Below, piece by piece: positions 14,048 to 57,139 of a stretch of DNA of 64,000 bases (the first letter of the stretch is position 1; the number at the start of each line of letters is the position of its first letter). Location: the IMG/VR virus record IMGVR_UViG_3300008255_000002; one strand, written 5' to 3'. Below the pieces are notes generated by a model that was not told where the DNA came from, searched no databases, and worked only from the letters and a program-made list of their open reading frames with translations. This stretch comes from a virus. The position numbers were made by a program, and so were the translations under genes.

Positions 14048-14149
14048 TATATCATATATCAAGATATGTTCATATGTCCATCCGTGACGCACAAGTTGAA
14101 CTGATGTAGATTTGTGTATATATGGATTTCACAGAAAATTATTTTTTTC

Positions 14150-18423: not shown

Positions 18424-19189
18424 GGATATGGCTTATATCGATGAGCATTTAGATTTGCCTATCGATGAATTAGCGGGATATTGTGGTGTGCCCCCTAAGA
18501 TGGTGAGAGATTATCTTAAGGGGCGACAACCCAGAAAAGAACAACCAGTTGTTTCACCAACACTCAGATCAAAACCCGAGTGGGCTTATATTTGTCGGCA
18601 ATTTACAGATGAAGAATTATCTTTTTATGAACATTGCTATAATAGAATGCTTGAACAATTTAAAGAAGATGTTGTTTATACAGAAGAAATTCAGGTACAT
18701 AAAGCTATAGAATTAGATATTTTTATGTTGCGTAATAAAATTAATAGGCGGCGTACCATAGATCAAATTCAATGGATCGAAGAACAATTACAAGAAGAAC
18801 TTTTATTAGATGAGAGCGCTCAAAACCAAAATAAAATTAATGCCTTGCGCGAACAACTCTCAGCTTTTAATAGCGTTGTCGTTTCAACAAATCGTGAATA
18901 TACTGATCTCCTTAACCAACATAATAAGATTATGGAGAGTCTACAGGGTACGCGCGAACAGTTGCGTAATAAACAATTTAATACAAAAATTGATATATTT
19001 TCTGTATTAAAAGATTTAGATGATGAAGATTATAGATCAAAACAAATTGTACAACAAGAGTTGGCGAAAAAAGCAATGGAATCAAAAAATGCAATATTAG
19101 GTTCTCTACACACTTTTATTGATGGAAGTGTAGATATTCCTATATTAACTGCTGAAAATTATGATAAGGTTGAATCAGAGAATGAATAA
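18401..19189 (+). CDS. HTH plus coiled-coil protein, possible terminase small subunit
   Basis: N-terminal HTH (IDELAGYCGVPPKMVRDYL), long coiled coil, position upstream of terL. Confidence 0.5.
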   Translation: MKKKLLIKDMAYIDEHLDLPIDELAGYCGVPPKMVRDYLKGRQPRKEQPVVSPTLRSKPEWAYICRQFTDEELSFYEHCYNRMLEQFKEDVVYTEEIQVHKAIELDIFMLRNKINRRRTIDQIQWIEEQLQEELLLDESAQNQNKINALREQLSAFNSVVVSTNREYTDLLNQHNKIMESLQGTREQLRNKQFNTKIDIFSVLKDLDDEDYRSKQIVQQELAKKAMESKNAILGSLHTFIDGSVDIPILTAENYDKVESENE

Positions 19190-19279: not shown

Positions 19280-19766
19280 ATGCAAAAAGTAAAAGTTTTA
19301 GTTGATACTCGTGAACAATGTCCGTGGAAATTTACGGAAAATAGTTGGTGTTCTGGATCTGAAATTACAACACTAAAAACGGGCGATTATACTTTAGAGG
19401 GGTTTGAAGATAAATTGTGTGTAGAAAAAAAAAAGCGTAAACGAATTTTATAATAATATTGTAACTAAAGATTATATTCGTTTTACTAAAGAGTTAGAAC
19501 GTATGAAACCTTTCCCTAACAAATATATTATCTTATGTTTTAATATGAATGATATTATTAAGTTTCCCTGGTCTACAGACCTACCAATTCACGTAAAAAG
19601 AAAAATTGTCGCAAGAGGCAGTAAATCAGATTTCTTCCTAAAAAGATTTGTTGAACTTCAAATAGCCTATCCAGATATTCATTTTCTTTTATGTGGGGAT
19701 GAAGCTGAAAAGGTTGTTAGTTCTATATTTAAAAGAGTGGTAGAATATTATGCAGAAAAAAGTTAA
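19280..19766 (+). pseudogene. ERCC4-domain nuclease split by a +1 frameshift in an A10 run
   Basis: Frame 0 reads VLVDTREQCPW...LKTGDYTLEG...LCVEKK and stops at 19453. The +1 frame continues SVNEFYNNI...RFTKELERMKPFP into ORF 19503-19766. Confidence 0.8.
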
Positions 19767-22700
19767 TCTTAGAGATTTTTTCGATAAATATTATGAAGAT
19801 GGAGAGGATGAATTTTCTTATCTAGAAACAGATGGAGGTTTAGATTTAGACGATTTAGCAAAATCAGAAATAGACATATCTAACAATCCATTTTTTGATA
19901 AAAAAGAAGATGCAGTTAGGAAGTTTTGTAGGGTTATTAGAGATCCAGATTATCTACCATTTACATGTGAACATGTTTTTAATATAGAGTTACTTCCTAC
20001 ATATCACGTCACAATGAAGCATTTATATAATCATTCCTTCCCAATGCTTATTGGTAGTCGTGGATTTGGAAAAAGCTTTACATTAGCTTTATATATATTG
20101 TGGCGACTATTAATTAATCAAGGTATTAAAGTTGTTGTTGTTGGTGCGGCATTCCGCCAATCAAAACTTATATTTAATTATTGTTTATCTATTCTTGAAC
20201 GTGCGCCGGTATATCAAAGTATGTGTGGAAATGGTTCTAAGATCAAGATATTAAAAGGGAACGATAAATGCACTATTCAGGTCGGTGAAAGTTTTGCAAC
20301 GTTTTTACCATTAGGTGATGGAGAAACAATTCGTGGTGAACGTGCTAATATTATTATTGCTGATGAATTTTCCATGATACCAGTTGATGTATATGAAACT
20401 GTTGTTAAAGGGTTTACTGCTGTTTCTCAAAATCCTATTAAAAACGTTAAACAAATCGCCAAAATGATGAGAAAAAAGAAAAAAGGATTATGGTCAAAAG
20501 AACAAGAAATTCTTTTTCAAGAAATGATGAAGTCTAATCAATCAATTGTATCTGGTACTGCATATTATTCTTTTAATTCTTTTTGTGATTATTGGAAAAA
20601 ATATAAAAAAATTATACAAAATAAAAATATAAAAGAAGCTGTTAAAGAAGAGGATGCTTATGCGCATTGTAATCGTAAAGATTTTTGTGTGCTTCGTATT
20701 CCTTTTGATTTAATTCCAACAGGATTTTTGGATATGAAATCCTTAAATCAAACAAAGGAAATGATCGCGGATTCTACATTTCAAATGGAATATGGCGCAT
20801 GTTTAACTCCAGATACAGAAGTTATTACATTAGACGGGATTAAAAAAATTATTAATGTAAAGGTTGGAGATTATGTATTAACACATCTTGGAAGGTGGCG
20901 AAAAGTTATCGAAGTAATGAAGCGGAAATATTTAGGTAATATATATAAAATTAAAGCATATGGAAATAATCAAAATATAGGCGTGACCCCAAACCATCCA
21001 TTTTATATTGATGAGGATTGGGAAAATTCTGCCAATTTAAAAAATAAAAAATTAGAACTTGCAAGATTTAATCATCTTAATAATACAACATCAATTAAAA
21101 TATCTGATTATGTAGATAGTATATGTAAAACAGTAGTTAATGATGTAGAATATGTTTATCCTAAACCATCACAATTAAAATGTTTTAAAGATCATCATAT
21201 AAAATATAAATCATGCATTCCAAATGAAATTAAACTTGATTATAATTTCGGATTGATTATTGGTTATTATGCGGCGGAAGGTAGCGTTGGAGCAAATGGT
21301 AGGGCGGTTTCTTTTTCTCTTGATGGTCATGTTGATATTAGTTTATTAGAATATATAAAAGAATTGAAAGATGCCCTTTTATCAACTTTTGAAATGAATT
21401 CCGTAGAATATCCAAAAGAAGATAATGTTGTTGATGTTTGTATGAACAGTAGATTAGTATCTGATCTATTAAAAAAAATATGTCCTAGTGTATCAGATAC
21501 AAAACATGTTAATACAGATATATTATACTCAAATCCAGAATTTATGAAGGGGTTTATTACTGGTTATTGGCATGGTGCCGGATGTGTACATAAAGATAAA
21601 TCAAGAAACAGATATCGTATTGTCGCGGGATGCACAAATAAATCTCTTTTATCTCAAGTTCGATTATGTATGTCTTATTTTGGTATTAAATCATCTTTAA
21701 ATAATGGAAAAGAAAAACATAAATCTTACTTTAGAGGGAGGGTATGTAATTGTAAACCATCATATATAGTACAAATATCAGAATCGTATTTAGATGAGTT
21801 TATTAAATTTATATCCGACAAAGAATATTTCCCCCCTAACCAAAATAAAAAAACACATAAGTTTATAAAGAGAGTTTATAAAGAAGAACATTATAGTGGA
21901 TTTGTTTATAATTTAGAAGTTGAGGAAGATCATAGTTATTCATTAATTAATGCTACAGTACATAATTGTTTTCCTGAAGATTCCAATGGTTTCTTTACTA
22001 GAAAATTAATTGAATCTTGTGTTGTGAAATCAGAAAGACAAATAGGACACGAAATTATATATCCTTTTACGGCAAGTATTATTGGTATAGACCATCCATT
22101 ATTTTATGCAATGGGTGTGGACCCTGCATCAGCAGAGGATAATTTTAGTATTGTTGTTATATCTGTATACCAAACATATAGAAAAATTGTTTATTGTTGG
22201 ACTATTAGAAAATCTATTCTTGCAGAACATATTAAAGAAGGTAGGGTTGATCAACAGGATTATTATGGATATTGCGCGAAAAAAATTAGAAATGTTATGA
22301 AGTCATTTTCTCCGTGCGAAATTATTGCTTTGGATGCTCAGGGTGGTGGTGAAGCTGGCGTAGCAGAAGCATTAGCAGATAAAGATAAATATTCAGAAAA
22401 AGACCTTCCTATATTCCCCGTAACAGAAGACCATCCGTTTTGGGATGGTAAAGAACGACATACAGATAAAATGACAGGGAAACATATTATTGAATTAGTT
22501 CAATTCGCGCGTGCTGATTATATTTCAGAAGCTAATCACGGATTAAAGAAAGATATGATAGATAAGGTATTACTATTTCCTATATTTGATGCAATATCTT
22601 TATCTACCGCACAATACCACGATGACGAAGAAGGCTTAGAATATGATAATTTAGAATTATGTATGTTAGAAATAGAAGAATTAAAAGATGAATTAGCGAC

Positions 22701-23001
22701 GATTCAACATGGACAACATCCAAAAACCAATAGAGATTATTGGGATACTCCAGAAAAGAAACTTGCCGAAAACAAAAAGGGTCGGTTAAGGAAGGATAGA
22801 TATAGCGCTTTATTAATAGCAAATATGGCGGCGCGTCGCTTACAACGCATGCCAGAAATATATAACAGAATGGTTGTTGGTGGTTTTGCTCAAAAATCAT
22901 CTATTAAAAAACAAATTAATTCCGGGGATAAAAATTTGTTTGTTGGTCCGCAAAAATACGTTAAGTCATTAAATATTTGTGCTGCTGTACGTAGACAATA
23001 A
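19750..23001 (+). CDS. terL: Terminase large subunit containing an intein
   Basis: Walker A GSRGFGKS, IRGERANIIIADEF, nuclease MGVDPA and RKDRYSAL. Confidence 0.95.
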   Translation: MQKKVNLRDFFDKYYEDGEDEFSYLETDGGLDLDDLAKSEIDISNNPFFDKKEDAVRKFCRVIRDPDYLPFTCEHVFNIELLPTYHVTMKHLYNHSFPMLIGSRGFGKSFTLALYILWRLLINQGIKVVVVGAAFRQSKLIFNYCLSILERAPVYQSMCGNGSKIKILKGNDKCTIQVGESFATFLPLGDGETIRGERANIIIADEFSMIPVDVYETVVKGFTAVSQNPIKNVKQIAKMMRKKKKGLWSKEQEILFQEMMKSNQSIVSGTAYYSFNSFCDYWKKYKKIIQNKNIKEAVKEEDAYAHCNRKDFCVLRIPFDLIPTGFLDMKSLNQTKEMIADSTFQMEYGACLTPDTEVITLDGIKKIINVKVGDYVLTHLGRWRKVIEVMKRKYLGNIYKIKAYGNNQNIGVTPNHPFYIDEDWENSANLKNKKLELARFNHLNNTTSIKISDYVDSICKTVVNDVEYVYPKPSQLKCFKDHHIKYKSCIPNEIKLDYNFGLIIGYYAAEGSVGANGRAVSFSLDGHVDISLLEYIKELKDALLSTFEMNSVEYPKEDNVVDVCMNSRLVSDLLKKICPSVSDTKHVNTDILYSNPEFMKGFITGYWHGAGCVHKDKSRNRYRIVAGCTNKSLLSQVRLCMSYFGIKSSLNNGKEKHKSYFRGRVCNCKPSYIVQISESYLDEFIKFISDKEYFPPNQNKKTHKFIKRVYKEEHYSGFVYNLEVEEDHSYSLINATVHNCFPEDSNGFFTRKLIESCVVKSERQIGHEIIYPFTASIIGIDHPLFYAMGVDPASAEDNFSIVVISVYQTYRKIVYCWTIRKSILAEHIKEGRVDQQDYYGYCAKKIRNVMKSFSPCEIIALDAQGGGEAGVAEALADKDKYSEKDLPIFPVTEDHPFWDGKERHTDKMTGKHIIELVQFARADYISEANHGLKKDMIDKVLLFPIFDAISLSTAQYHDDEEGLEYDNLELCMLEIEELKDELATIQHGQHPKTNRDYWDTPEKKLAENKKGRLRKDRYSALLIANMAARRLQRMPEIYNRMVVGGFAQKSSIKKQINSGDKNLFVGPQKYVKSLNICAAVRRQ
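20800..21966 (+). mobile_element. Intein (389 aa) with LAGLIDADG homing endonuclease
   Basis: QMEYGA|CLTPDTEV, block B VTPNHPF, VYNLEVEEDHSY...VHN|CF; LAGLIDADG helices GLIIGYYAAEGS and GFITGYWHGAGC. Confidence 0.95.
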
Positions 23002-23003
23002 GC

Positions 23004-23020
23004 GTGTATTTAAATTGTAA
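23004..23020 (+). promoter_or_regulatory. Putative late promoter motif GTGTAT plus AT-rich tail (other copies at 26036, 28344, 34349 and 37593; minus strand 55148 and 55579)
   Basis: Recurs about 40-80 bp upstream of the portal, scaffold, sialidase, tail tube and tape measure starts. Confidence 0.7.
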
Positions 23021-28290: not shown

Positions 28291-28385
28291 AATTATTTTA
28301 CTTTATTTTAAATATACATAAAAGCCGGATATATCCCGGCTTAGTGTATTTATATGTAAGGTGTTTTTTATCTAGAGGTCTTGTT

Positions 28386-37592: not shown

Positions 37593-37623
37593 GTGTATCT
37601 TTAAATAGGAATTATTATAATGG

Positions 37624-37663
37624 ACTCTCAATCTTTGCAAATTGATTGAGGGTTCTTTTTTTT
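37624..37663 (+). terminator. Terminator-like hairpin directly upstream of the tape measure gene
   Basis: ACTCTCAATC...GATTGAGGGT followed by TC and T8. Confidence 0.7.
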
Positions 37664-37673
37664 GAGGTAGCAT

Positions 37674-52566: not shown

Positions 52567-52603
52567 ATAAAAAAAATCCCGCCATAAGGCGGGATAATTA
52601 TTT
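52567..52603. terminator. Terminator between convergent blocks (long T-run on the minus strand)
   Basis: A-run, then ATCCCGCC-ATAA-GGCGGGAT. Confidence 0.85.
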
Positions 52604-53862: not shown

Positions 53863-54651
53863 TTATAACTCCAATATAATAATTTTTTCTTCTATTTTAT
53901 TTTCTTTAATATCTTCAATTTTTTGCAATATTCTTTCAAAGGCAAGTAGCATTTTTGTTTTACTCATTTTTTGAATATGTCTAACTCGCATAACACGATA
54001 GCCAAATTGAGTTAATAAACCATTTTTTTCTCTATCTCTTTCTTGTCTTTTTTTAAATTTTTCCGGTTCATTATATACATCGATCATGTGCGCGGGACCA
54101 TCAATCTCAATACATAATAATAATTCACGAATATAAATATCTACTCTTAAATCTTCATTTGGGATAAGTGCTGTTTTTTGTGTCTCAGAAAATATATTAT
54201 TTTTTCCTAATTCGTCCACAACAAACTTTTCAAATTTAGATCCGCTACGTGAAGTTGCATTAATAGCTTTCATTCCCCTTAATACAAACTCCTTCTTTTC
54301 ATCTTCCGTCAAACTATTATAGTATTTTTTGCCCCGATCAGAGCGTTCCTTTTTTTGGGATTCATCGAGTTCGTCATACTTTTTACTTAATGTTTTCCCA
54401 ATTTTTTCTTTTGTTTCTTCTGATCTTTTAGTTCCTTTAGTGGGTGATTCTCTTTTTCCTTGATCGTATAAAAGTTGACACGCTTCTTTTTTTGAACGCA
54501 TCTGAAATCCATAATACAAGAGAGCGTTTCTAATTCTCCATTGATCAGTATTTAATTCTACAGCAATTTCATATGTAGACATTTTTTTAACTTCAAAAAA
54601 CTCATTTAGTAATTCTTTACTCCATGTAGGAGCGATTGCTTTACGTCCCAT
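53863..54651 (-). CDS. NUMOD3 plus Vsr/DUF559-type endonuclease
   Basis: KGTKRSEETKEKIG; SKFEK...VDIY...IEIDGPAH...RDREKN...GYRVMRV. Confidence 0.8.
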   Translation of the reverse strand: MGRKAIAPTWSKELLNEFFEVKKMSTYEIAVELNTDQWRIRNALLYYGFQMRSKKEACQLLYDQGKRESPTKGTKRSEETKEKIGKTLSKKYDELDESQKKERSDRGKKYYNSLTEDEKKEFVLRGMKAINATSRSGSKFEKFVVDELGKNNIFSETQKTALIPNEDLRVDIYIRELLLCIEIDGPAHMIDVYNEPEKFKKRQERDREKNGLLTQFGYRVMRVRHIQKMSKTKMLLAFERILQKIEDIKENKIEEKIIILEL

Positions 54652-55102
54652 AATCCACCCCGAATTCAAAATCTGAAACTACATCTTTTACCTCTCTATT
54701 CCAAGCATTTTCAATGATTTTTTTATGTGAATATGATCTTACAACAAGTTCTAAAGATGGATGTTGGTAAATTGATGCTAAAAATTCATATGGCAATTTT
54801 GGGTTATATCGTAGCCATTCGAGATCCCAAATATAATAAATTTTTCTTTTTGGTCCAGGGCACTTAATTAATTTTTGGGCGGTACTCAAATTTGTAGCGA
54901 TTGCAGTCCCATTCCAGCTATAACCATATACGATGTTCATTAGAGAGAATGAATGTTGTATAGGTGTGTGTGATAAGTTCTCAAAAAAGATAGCGTAATC
55001 AATATTTTGTTTAGATATTTTATTTCCTAAACACATTGAATAGAACGATAATTGAGAAGCAAAAAGATCACTTACAAAAATTCCTAATTTCTTTCTTTTC
55101 AT
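54641..55102 (-). CDS. Glycosyltransferase-like protein fragment
   Basis: GTAIATNLSTA...KIYYIWDLEW...LVVRS. Confidence 0.55.
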   Translation of the reverse strand: MKRKKLGIFVSDLFASQLSFYSMCLGNKISKQNIDYAIFFENLSHTPIQHSFSLMNIVYGYSWNGTAIATNLSTAQKLIKCPGPKRKIYYIWDLEWLRYNPKLPYEFLASIYQHPSLELVVRSYSHKKIIENAWNREVKDVVSDFEFGVDYGT

Positions 55103-55148
55103 ATATCCCTCTGTATATTAGTGAATGTTATCCTACATACTAATACAC

Positions 55149-55594
55149 ATCGGGATAGTTCTAAAGAAGTTATTTTTTAGAAAATTGCGCACCATCCCCT
55201 TTATGGGTGAGATAGGCTTTATTTTGGTGTTGTTGTGTTTGTTATATTAGTAATAATATTTCGTGTTTTTGCCTATCTCTTTACTATTACTATTCCCGAT
55301 TTTTAGGATTTTTATTATCTCACCACTAGGTTGTTAGGTTTAGAACATTGCCTAGTTTTGTCTTTGTGATACTTACCTAAAACATACATTAGCGCGAGGA
55401 TGGTTATCGCGTTGGGTCGGTAGGATTTTGCGTACCTACTCGTTTTCTACGGGAAATACACATTGGAAAACAAAAAAAACTGCAAAAAAAAGACCGTTTC
55501 GATGACGGGTTATTACCCGGTTTTTATTTCCACTGTATCAAGTGGCAATTTTGTTTGTTTGTGTTATATATCAATACACTATTGTATTTTTTTT
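55149..55594 (+). ncRNA. About 450-nt highly structured non-coding element, probably an RNA antisense to the surrounding genes
   Basis: No ORF and about 10 stems. G-U wobbles fall on the plus strand. It ends in AATACA-CTAT-TGTATT followed by a T-run. Confidence 0.55.
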
Positions 55595-55599
55595 ATGAG

Positions 55600-56328
55600 T
55601 TAGTTGCTCAAAAACATTCCAGATTTGTCCAAACAGAGATATAATTTTTCTTCTCTCCATATCTCGTTAACTGTCGCCCCAACATGCAAACCTAATTCTG
55701 ATGGCATAGGTGTTTTAAGGGGAAATGGTTGATTATATCCGTGTCGCATCCAACTAAAAACAATTGGTTCTATAAATTTTTGATAGAAAAACCAAATATC
55801 AAAAAATACCATTGGTTGATTTAGTTTTGGGTATTCGTGAATCCGATATTTCTTATATATTTCTTGTATATTAGAATATATTCCCCCAACTAAACCGCAT
55901 ATACCGGGCATTATAATACAATTCGTATGTGCCGCGCAATCATATATAGAATGTGCAAGCATACCAGATTCTACCCATTCCGAAACCGCATCAGCTTCGC
56001 GTGGATTAACTCGCGAATCACAATCACGAAAGATAGCGCGTTCACAATCTTTTTCATCTAAAACATTATATCGCCACGACATCGCAGCATTACGAAAATC
56101 ATCTTTCCAGTTTTTATCATTAATTCTATCAACTCCCTTGATTGGTGGGGCAATGACCAATTTTATATTCATTTCCTCTAATACACTTAGAGCCGGGCAA
56201 TCCTCGGATATGTAAACTATAGGGGTCCACCCCGGATAGTATTTTTCTATTAGGGGAAGATTTTGCAACATCCCCTCACAATACAATTTTATATTTCCAT
56301 ATAATGAAAAACTTACATATTTAGCCAT
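55600..56328 (-). CDS. Glycosyltransferase-like protein (GT-A fold)
   Basis: VSFSLYG..LYCEG...YYPGW...MSWRY...IFRDCDSR...RE..AV.EW. Confidence 0.75.
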   Translation of the reverse strand: MAKYVSFSLYGNIKLYCEGMLQNLPLIEKYYPGWTPIVYISEDCPALSVLEEMNIKLVIAPPIKGVDRINDKNWKDDFRNAAMSWRYNVLDEKDCERAIFRDCDSRVNPREADAVSEWVESGMLAHSIYDCAAHTNCIIMPGICGLVGGIYSNIQEIYKKYRIHEYPKLNQPMVFFDIWFFYQKFIEPIVFSWMRHGYNQPFPLKTPMPSELGLHVGATVNEIWREEKLYLCLDKSGMFLSN

Positions 56329-57139
56329 ATATATAATCCTTTCCAAACTTTCTCTCCATCTTATACCCACATTCTAAATAATATAGAATGTCCACAATTT
56401 CAAACGCTTTACATCCTGTAATAGACCACGCTGGATAATTATTAGGATAATGAATTTTAGGTATTTTTGAATTTGATAAAGATATTTGTTTAAATATTCC
56501 TATAACCCAATTTAAAAATATTTCTGTTCCAACTATAGACAATTTAAGACTTTTAGTTCCAGATTTGTTTCGTATCCATTTTATACTTCCGTCTCCTTCT
56601 ATATAACCAACTATATAAGATAAAGATTGTTCTAAAGTTAGTTTATCGGGCGGCTTTAGCGTTAAACTTTTATTTTTTGTTATATTAAAATGATTTAAAA
56701 GATCTTCTCTCCATTGTTTTGCCGACCAAAAATTAACTCGGCACATTTTACTAATATTTCCACTTGGATTAATAACTTCATAGTCTTTGATAGGACCATT
56801 AAAATTTGTTGCAATTACAAATTCTTTTAATAAAATTTTATCTGTTCTTTTTATAGATATTCCAATTCCATTACCTTTACAAAAATAACCATCAGAAGCT
56901 ATTAAACCAGCCCATTTACAACTTTCTAAGTTTTTTATATTTGAAAAGAACCATTTATCAATATTATATTTGGAATGAGCCTGACTAAGATCAGTTTTTA
57001 ATCCAAGAAAACTAGCCATTCTTTGTATTGCTTGTTTTGTTCTGGTTGGAAGTAATTTTTCTATATCATATATAGTTATGTTGCTATAATAATTTTTTAA
57101 GATTTCAACTTCTTCTTTCGTCCATCTTTGTCTTTGCAT
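56321..57139 (-). CDS. Free-standing LAGLIDADG homing endonuclease with Myb-like N-terminus
   Basis: WAGLIASDG and YIVGYIEGDGS; WTKEEVEIL...RTKQAI. Confidence 0.85.
   Translation of the reverse strand: MQRQRWTKEEVEILKNYYSNITIYDIEKLLPTRTKQAIQRMASFLGLKTDLSQAHSKYNIDKWFFSNIKNLESCKWAGLIASDGYFCKGNGIGISIKRTDKILLKEFVIATNFNGPIKDYEVINPSGNISKMCRVNFWSAKQWREDLLNHFNITKNKSLTLKPPDKLTLEQSLSYIVGYIEGDGSIKWIRNKSGTKSLKLSIVGTEIFLNWVIGIFKQISLSNSKIPKIHYPNNYPAWSITGCKAFEIVDILYYLECGYKMERKFGKDYIYG

Follow-up and report, generated by a model that had tools for sequence, protein, structure and literature searches.

What is encoded, if anything, in almost 500 nt of phage DNA that lack an open reading frame, fold strongly and lie between two genes read in the same direction, and on which strand does the fold matter? 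We addressed this question for the gap at 55103-55599 of the window, by which we mean the whole 64,000-nt stretch of DNA that was analysed. It belongs to an uncultured large phage whose longest assembly is ~154 kb and which carries rIIA and rIIB; the phage has no close cultured relative, the best cultured-phage rIIA matches being ~22% identical. The original prediction had singled out the gap as the only large one among tightly packed genes and had read it as a densely folded element with mutually exclusive helices. At 497 nt it indeed tops all ORF-free stretches in the window, and it is the sole gap >150 nt between ~19.3 kb and 64 kb.

Between 63958 and 52602, every gene is read from the minus strand. 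The series begins with rIIA, rIIB, a gene for a CAP-domain protein, two small ORFs and a free-standing LAGLIDADG endonuclease gene. It continues with a glycosyltransferase-like gene, the gap and a tight block of four genes, which encode a 153-aa protein, a DUF559-like protein of 268 aa, an annealase and a Whirly-like protein, and it is closed by a strong bidirectional terminator at 52576-52595. The gap had been placed just upstream of the nuclease, annealase and Whirly genes; these do belong to the block behind it, but the 153-aa gene sits between the gap and them (Table 1). The LAGLIDADG gene (56321-57139, minus strand) lies directly upstream of the glycosyltransferase-like gene, and the 50-nt overlap listed between the two ORFs is gone once the true start at 56328 is applied. 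Inside the gap, the minus-strand ORFs have just 20, 24 and 29 codons, the 29-codon one overlapping the end of the upstream gene. The 20-codon ORF (55195-55133) ends in the 5' arm of a hairpin described below; lacking an SD at a usable spacing, it was not adopted as a gene. Nor were ORFs of 23-46 codons on the plus strand that would encode hydrophobic peptides, as they lack an SD and as their hydrophobicity is explained by the T-rich composition.

Table 1. Window positions of the gap, its flanking genes and the features discussed in the text.
Feature	Position	Strand	Details
Whole gap	55103..55599	-	ORF-free, flanked by two co-oriented minus-strand genes; MFE -111.3 kcal/mol, z -5.78
Upstream glycosyltransferase-like gene (label of the original prediction)	55600..56328	-	conserved RDCDSR motif; true start MAKYVSF, 242 aa
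Downstream 153-aa gene	54641..55102	-	complete stand-alone protein; first of four-gene block
GTGTAT copy 1 (GTGTATTGATATATA, 55579-55565)	55565..55588	-	within AU-rich palindrome 55588-55573
GTGTAT copy 2	55456..55461	-	just downstream (minus direction) of U-tracts
GTGTAT copy 3, extended form GTGTATTAGTATGTA	55134..55148	-	wholly inside 5' arm of occluding hairpin
Hairpins with A-tracts and T-tracts	55472..55556		two G+C-rich hairpins
Central multi-branched domain	55187..55410	-	224 nt; four or five inner helices
21-bp SD-occluding hairpin	55104..55157	-	5' arm 55157-55135, loop 55134-55129, 3' arm 55128-55104
SD AGAGGGA (55112-55106) and AUG (55102-55100) of 153-aa gene	55100..55112	-	GGGAUA 55109-55104 pairs with UAUCCC 55157-55152
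Small hairpin	55159..55182		10 bp with one G.U on plus, 7 bp on minus
Segment GGTGAGATAGGC (plus-strand letters)	55206..55217		pairs with 55271-55279 or 55316-55324
Near partner GCCTATCTC	55271..55279		minus strand overlaps ATAGGCAA
Far partner TATCTCACC	55316..55324		used in minus-strand MFE
AUCGGGAAUAGU	55289..55300	-	alternative partner of anti-SD segment 55159-55149
Stem	55149-59/55289-300		verified
Stem	55159-68/55173-82		verified
Stem	55209-17/55271-79		verified
Stem	55206-14/55316-24		verified
Stem	55325-31/55350-56		verified
Stem	55391-97/55408-14		verified
Stem	55420-25/55435-40		verified
Stem	55506-10/55515-19		verified
Stem	55530-34/55541-45		verified

Both neighbours of the gap are glycosyltransferase-like, homing-endonuclease genes lie nearby and the region is folded, as might be expected of a group I or group II intron, or the remnant of one, that interrupts a glycosyltransferase gene. 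However, each flanking protein can be aligned over its whole length with full-length relatives. The upstream 242-aa protein is complete at its C-terminus, ending where its 230-aa relatives end, and the downstream 153-aa protein is a full-length member of a family of 150-163 aa with its own SD and AUG. The predicted fold of the latter matches the N-terminal domain of GT-B glycosyltransferases, so that a missing half would lie downstream of it and not in the gap. In addition, relaxing the threshold to E 10 brought up no Rfam intron model. Since the flanking genes are two complete family members and not two halves of one, we reject the split gene, and we give an intron next to no credence, in line with the absence of an intron signature in the original prediction. 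The upstream gene shows a variant of its own. In a 1587-bp ENA contig, from a second assembly of the same phage, the glycosyltransferase-like protein P0001 is identical except for an exact internal deletion of 42 aa, which reflects natural variation or else a difference between assemblies. Elsewhere in the window, the ORF of the terminase large subunit (19750-23001, plus strand) encodes 1083 aa, with terminase homology only in residues ~48-240 and a match to a separate PHROG of unknown function at residues 349-421; this ORF may contain an insertion or be a fusion.

The gap does not belong to a known class of RNA. Rfam 15, searched with the whole window, gave no match at the gathering score. 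At E up to 10 it gave two noise matches (E 5-8), with 12-13 bits against thresholds of 62-90. ARAGORN found no tRNA or tmRNA. These searches agree with the earlier statement that no tmRNA or RNase P is recognisable, and together with the complete flanking proteins they lead us to conclude that the gap is not a known RNA, an intron or the end of a mobile element.

As to its fold, the gap beats dinucleotide shuffles on both strands, both as RNA (z -2.84 for plus and -5.78 for minus) and as single-stranded DNA (z -4.2 and -4.8, about equal for the two strands), and its density of structure had thus been rightly noticed. Since shuffles can flatter native sequence, we added a control of eleven 497-nt coding windows of the same phage, folded on both strands. 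The resulting 22 values have a mean z of -0.6, a standard deviation of 1.2 and a minimum of -2.9. The minus-strand z of the gap lies ~4 standard deviations beyond the coding windows, whereas the plus-strand z is within their range, so the plus strand resembles ordinary native sequence. The ensemble is also tighter on the minus strand (diversity 80 versus 107 for plus), where the centroid has -105 kcal/mol against an MFE of -111. The signal is concentrated in 55050-55350; in the sub-region 55470-55599, neither strand reaches a significant z. The gap has about two times as many perfect inverted repeats as shuffles lead one to expect, and the count of helices of at least 7 bp is equalled by 3 of the 22 coding windows. 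The exceptional fold of the gap therefore belongs to the minus strand, in sense orientation to both neighbours.

This strand assignment differs from the original prediction, which proposed a plus-strand RNA. Such an RNA would be an antisense transcript of ~400-450 nt that covers the start of the 153-aa gene and ends at sites where a hairpin is followed by a T-run. The main evidence for it is that the plus strand has two hairpins of canonical terminator type, at 55530-45 and, ahead of GTTTTT, at 55506-19, where 0.5 would be expected; a G+C-rich hairpin directly before a U-run, as in an intrinsic terminator, is found in the gap on the plus strand only. The weaker hairpin with a T8 run at 55573-94, to which the original prediction had pointed, is present, as is the minus-strand GTGTAT at 55579 that had been noted with it. 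In addition, there is a weak sigma-70-like site on the plus strand at 55052-81, and the small hairpin at 55159-55182 is the sole element that folds better on plus. The argument from G-U pairs, in contrast, does not hold, since perfect helices end in G.T and in A.C pairs equally often (14:14). Against a plus-strand RNA also stand the z inside the coding range, a z of just -1.9 for the central domain, the more diffuse ensemble and the lack of GTGTAT, ATAGGCAA or a strong host-type promoter on the plus strand near the gap. We think a functional plus-strand RNA distinctly unlikely. The minus strand has two U8 runs (55491-84 and 55479-72), and 14 nt separate the first of them from the stable hairpin that precedes it. 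Because of this distance the hairpin would make a poor terminator, and termination of minus-strand transcripts at 55472-55556 is doubtful; no canonical minus-strand terminator was found in the gap. The layout fits minus-strand read-through from the upstream block together with a block to antisense transcription.

The strongest single feature of the gap is a 21-bp hairpin that buries the SD of the 153-aa gene. It makes up the last 54 nt of the gap in the minus direction, and its energy is -24.2 kcal/mol (z -5.6) on the minus strand versus -18.2 kcal/mol (z -3.8) on the plus strand. The minus strand is thus favoured by 6 kcal/mol, and one G.U pair exists only there. The SD stands three bases before the AUG and its GGG is located inside the 3' arm of the hairpin. 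Occlusion was measured, for each of the window's 75 gene starts, as the cost of opening positions -18 to +6. The median is 5.4 kcal/mol, and the highest value, 22.5 kcal/mol, belongs to the start of the 153-aa gene; the runner-up is a mis-called start inside a terminator. The cost depends on where the RNA begins: it is 19-22 kcal/mol for long transcripts, with 19-21 for those starting at 55450 or 55599, and 2-5 kcal/mol for RNAs starting at 55140-55128.

The 5' arm of this hairpin contains one of three GTGTAT copies in the gap, all of them on the minus strand. The first copy is located 21 nt past the stop codon of the upstream gene. It shares a 15-nt extended form with the copies at 55148 and 28344. 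By our own count, the window holds 11 sense-oriented GTGTAT sites upstream of genes and no antisense one. The motif, which the original prediction had called a late motif, therefore stands as a real sense-oriented intergenic signal. By automated gene calls, 9 of 33 copies lie in sense-upstream DNA, which makes GTGTAT the second most enriched of 4096 hexamers; when the three copies in the gap are excluded, 6 of 30 lie in ~5% of the sequence. This positional enrichment would fail a correction over all hexamers, though the hypothesis had been stated beforehand. Across the whole window, neither GTGTAT nor TGTGTAT is enriched; the bias is confined to position and orientation. On the plus strand, GTGTAT precedes genes of the structural block at 23004, 28344, 34349 and 37593, and further sites are found at 14114 (plus), 18037, 8640 and 828 (all minus). 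From this distribution, GTGTAT is a candidate phage-specific promoter element, and copy 2 is a candidate start point of a structured leader of ~340 nt. In the rest of the window, GTGTAT does not occur inside a ribosome-site hairpin.

Several of the motif's other sites, and the other promoter-like sites of the window, have features of their own. At 28344, the extended form GTGTATTNRTATRTA comes just after a terminator hairpin and ahead of the next gene of the structural block. At 37593-37673 (plus strand), a hairpin with a T8 run comes after GTGTAT and directly precedes a gene of 3018 aa; this layout, promoter first and terminator second, resembles the start of the gap. There is no strong host-type promoter on either strand of the gap, unlike in the early region. 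The host-type form TTGAC(T/C)-16-TAnAnT, with a TG extension at every site, occurs on the minus strand at 92, 709, 5594, 9305, 11701, 13120 and 13393, that is, only in the first 14 kb; the gap and its surroundings have none, and the sites listed for 46-64 kb include none either.

A ribosome site buried by a hairpin with a promoter in its arm is known from phages such as T4. Genes e, soc, 49 and I-TevI of T4, segB, and mobE of phage Aeh1 have such a hairpin with a late promoter in the 5' arm, so that early read-through RNA is translationally silent and the late promoter yields translatable RNA (PMC3014915, PMC2988022). The gap resembles these cases in that its hairpin is very stable and pairs with the SD of a gene located downstream of a co-oriented operon; on long transcripts the SD is held in this stable local hairpin. 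The 5' arm contains a promoter-like motif that also precedes structural genes, and RNAs begun past the motif lose the arm, which lowers the computed opening cost from ~20 to ~2 kcal/mol. Hence our leading reading, which we hold tentatively and at somewhat less than an even chance, is that the gap is a minus-strand control region between two transcription units, with an occluded ribosome site of the T4 type. Transcripts from the upstream rII/LAGLIDADG/glycosyltransferase-like block would run into the gap, a read-through we propose because no canonical minus-strand terminator is present. On these long RNAs, or on RNAs from GTGTAT copy 2, the 21-bp hairpin would bury the SD, and the 153-aa gene, probably also the DUF559-like, annealase and Whirly genes, would be poorly translated from them. 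RNAs begun just past copy 3 would lack the 5' arm and have an open ribosome site.

Some observations do not sit easily with a T4-type control region. It leaves the central domain without a role, the hairpins that look like canonical terminators are all directed along the plus strand and, as single-stranded DNA, both strands fold equally well. The gap also differs from the T4 cases in its putative promoter, which is based on GTGTAT and not on TATAAATA, in the phage itself, which is only distantly related to T4-like phages, and in the further ~300 nt of folded RNA that precede the hairpin and have no counterpart in T4.

Comparison with relatives bears on how widely the arrangement occurs. Neither blastn of the gap against the phage genome collection nor two DNA patterns from the gap run against IMG/VR gave a match. 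When IMG/VR was scanned with rIIB, the annealase and the two proteins that flank the gap, the contigs returned were all distant and non-syntenic. The metagenome scan yielded one relative of 36% identity, which lacks the upstream gap; the genome scan yielded no relative, and a 20-mer pattern gave four chance matches in unrelated coding DNA. Copies of gap segments elsewhere in the window were limited to short matches at chance level, and 16 related loci gave nothing against Rfam. As no relative of the gap is present in any collection searched, no helix is backed by covariation. The family of the downstream 153-aa protein, on the other hand, is common in IMG/VR phages, where 80 loci were retrieved. 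In these loci, the homologue comes directly behind the preceding gene, usually overlapping it (the three preceding genes scanned encode two NDP-sugar epimerases and one glycosyltransferase), and it is followed by a homologue of the DUF559-like gene of ~260 aa, which at one compared locus is 33% identical to the 268-aa protein of the window. The pairing of a half-glycosyltransferase with a restriction-endonuclease-fold protein is found in the window at 53863-55102 (minus strand). None of the homologue-bearing loci examined among the 80 retrieved has a real or structured upstream gap; apparent upstream gaps of 690-900 nt in some of them are spanned by an open frame and unstructured. Because the IMG/VR loci lack a real upstream gap, the gap appears, from these sequence comparisons, to be specific to this lineage.

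A lineage-specific gap might be a functionless spacer, for example the scar of a lost homing-endonuclease gene or of another gene, with structure that is incidental beyond promoter and terminator signals. The uniqueness of the gap and the gene order of relatives, where the 153-aa gene directly follows the preceding gene, would suit this explanation, as would the free-standing endonuclease genes nearby and counts of 7-bp helices and competing helices that are within the range of coding windows. However, the minus-strand z of -5.8 is ~4 standard deviations beyond the coding windows, the ribosome site is the most occluded of 75, and an intergenic motif occurs three times in sense orientation within 500 nt. 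In addition, tblastn gave no signal in the gap for a remnant of the epimerase or glycosyltransferase gene found upstream in relatives. We regard a mere spacer as unlikely.

Upstream of the ribosome-site hairpin, the minus strand folds into a central multi-branched domain. It is closed by the helix ACCAUCCUC:GGGGAUGGU (55404-396:55199-191) and GCG:CGC, i.e. 9+3 bp, and it encloses the 55324-16:55214-06 helix together with several hairpins. Its z is -4.1 on the minus strand, a value that none of 200 shuffles reach, and the centroid retains the fold. This closed structure could instead be an independent, trans-acting minus-strand ncRNA of ~225-350 nt that starts near GTGTAT copy 2, with the ribosome-site hairpin as a separate neighbour; having no Rfam match, it would be new. 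However, no minus-strand terminator separates the domain from the downstream gene, no copy or relative appears in any collection searched, and more than 80 phage contigs with the same downstream gene pair lack such an element. We consider a separate ncRNA rather improbable. GOLLD and ROOL are large ornate phage-associated ncRNAs in Rfam, defined by wide conservation. Like them, the gap is several hundred nt long, multi-branched and part of a phage genome; unlike them, it has no Rfam 15 match, no relatives, no nearby tRNAs and no wide conservation.

In our view the central domain belongs to the leader, where it may serve as a stabiliser or offer a platform to a protein or ligand. The leader of T4 gene 32 is a translational operator with a pseudoknot and an unstructured tract. 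The gap resembles leaders of the gene 32 type in being a long structured leader with unstructured A/C-rich tracts (on the minus strand, 55245-55218 and 55564-55546) ahead of an operon for an annealase and a Whirly-type ssDNA-binding protein. It differs from them in that the occluded start belongs to a glycosyltransferase-like first gene and not to the binding protein, and in having no sequence similarity. The control of translation by RNA-protein contacts in T4 has been reviewed (PMC3014915).

The leader might also switch between folds, as the original prediction had suggested from helices that exclude each other. Every stem it had listed was found at the coordinates given (Table 1), and the alternative pairings exist. 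For segment 55217-06, swapping only the partner costs 3 kcal/mol. Forcing 55300-289 onto 55159-149 frees the SD at a cost of 8.3 kcal/mol relative to the MFE, and this helix, nested with 55279-71:55217-09, forms a coherent second fold that exposes the ribosome site. The number of competing helices, however, does not stand out: the gap has 8, a number reached by 31 of 300 shuffles, and coding windows have 0-22. As this count is not above chance, mutually exclusive helices are to be expected in such AT-rich DNA, and the switch is possible, with neither statistical nor comparative support. A stronger form would make the minus-strand leader of ~350 nt (55450-55104) a new two-state riboregulator that decides whether the recombination operon of the phage is translated. 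Its central domain would be the sensor; the ligand would be a small molecule or a protein, perhaps the Whirly or annealase encoded in this operon, and binding would move the RNA between two states, one with the ribosome site buried and one, the nested alternative, with it exposed. The gap shares with riboswitch and attenuator platforms the arrangement in three parts, in which 55300-55289 competes with the SD for the anti-SD segment 55159-55149, and the two coherent folds. It differs from them in that the SD-open fold is 8.3 kcal/mol less stable, the competing helices are at chance and there is no aptamer match or conservation. Among the IMG/VR loci examined, we found no case of the same fold, with covariation, upstream of homologous genes, as would be expected of a riboswitch. 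Such a riboregulator is, in our estimate, a minor possibility.

One arm of the alternative pairings recurs in the window. ATAGGCAA has five copies, all on the minus strand (13520, 14150, 18149, 18455 and 55269), of which four lie in ORF-free gaps and the one at 18455 in the 5' end of an ORF with a GTG start. The copy in the gap is the stem arm GAGATAGGC of the original prediction, so pairing may not be the reason why this arm is kept.

The fold might also act at the level of DNA. It could mark an origin of replication or a site of recombination or packaging, or be a group of palindromes that bind proteins, next to the recombination genes. In favour of a DNA element, both strands fold well as single-stranded DNA (z -4.2 and -4.8), nearly all helix pairs are Watson-Crick, which makes the helices symmetric between strands, several short motifs are present in three copies of mixed orientation, and nuclease, annealase and Whirly genes are adjacent. 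However, we found in the gap neither an iteron array (the direct repeats have two copies of 9-15 nt) nor an evident AT-rich unwinding element, the two marks of a replication origin. The G+C of the gap is 0.30-0.34 and not below that of the flanks, and GC skew across the region simply follows gene direction. In addition, the strongest hairpin is located exactly on the ribosome-binding site and has a G.U pair on the minus strand. We therefore hold a DNA-level element to be decidedly improbable.

In this study, we examined a gap whose fold is real but less exotic than first proposed; its most solid part is a further example of a mechanism already known. We regard the 224-nt domain as a candidate for a new regulatory RNA; with one copy known and no relatives, it is so far indistinguishable from a lineage-specific structure. 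If the gap is a T4-type control region, the trick of T4, in which early read-through is silent and the promoter lies within the silencing hairpin, would also be used by a very distant, uncultured large phage, with a promoter motif different from that of T4. The locus would then offer a handle on the promoter code of this phage, through GTGTAT, and on the timing of an unusual operon that combines a glycosyltransferase-domain protein, a nuclease-like protein, an annealase and a Whirly protein.
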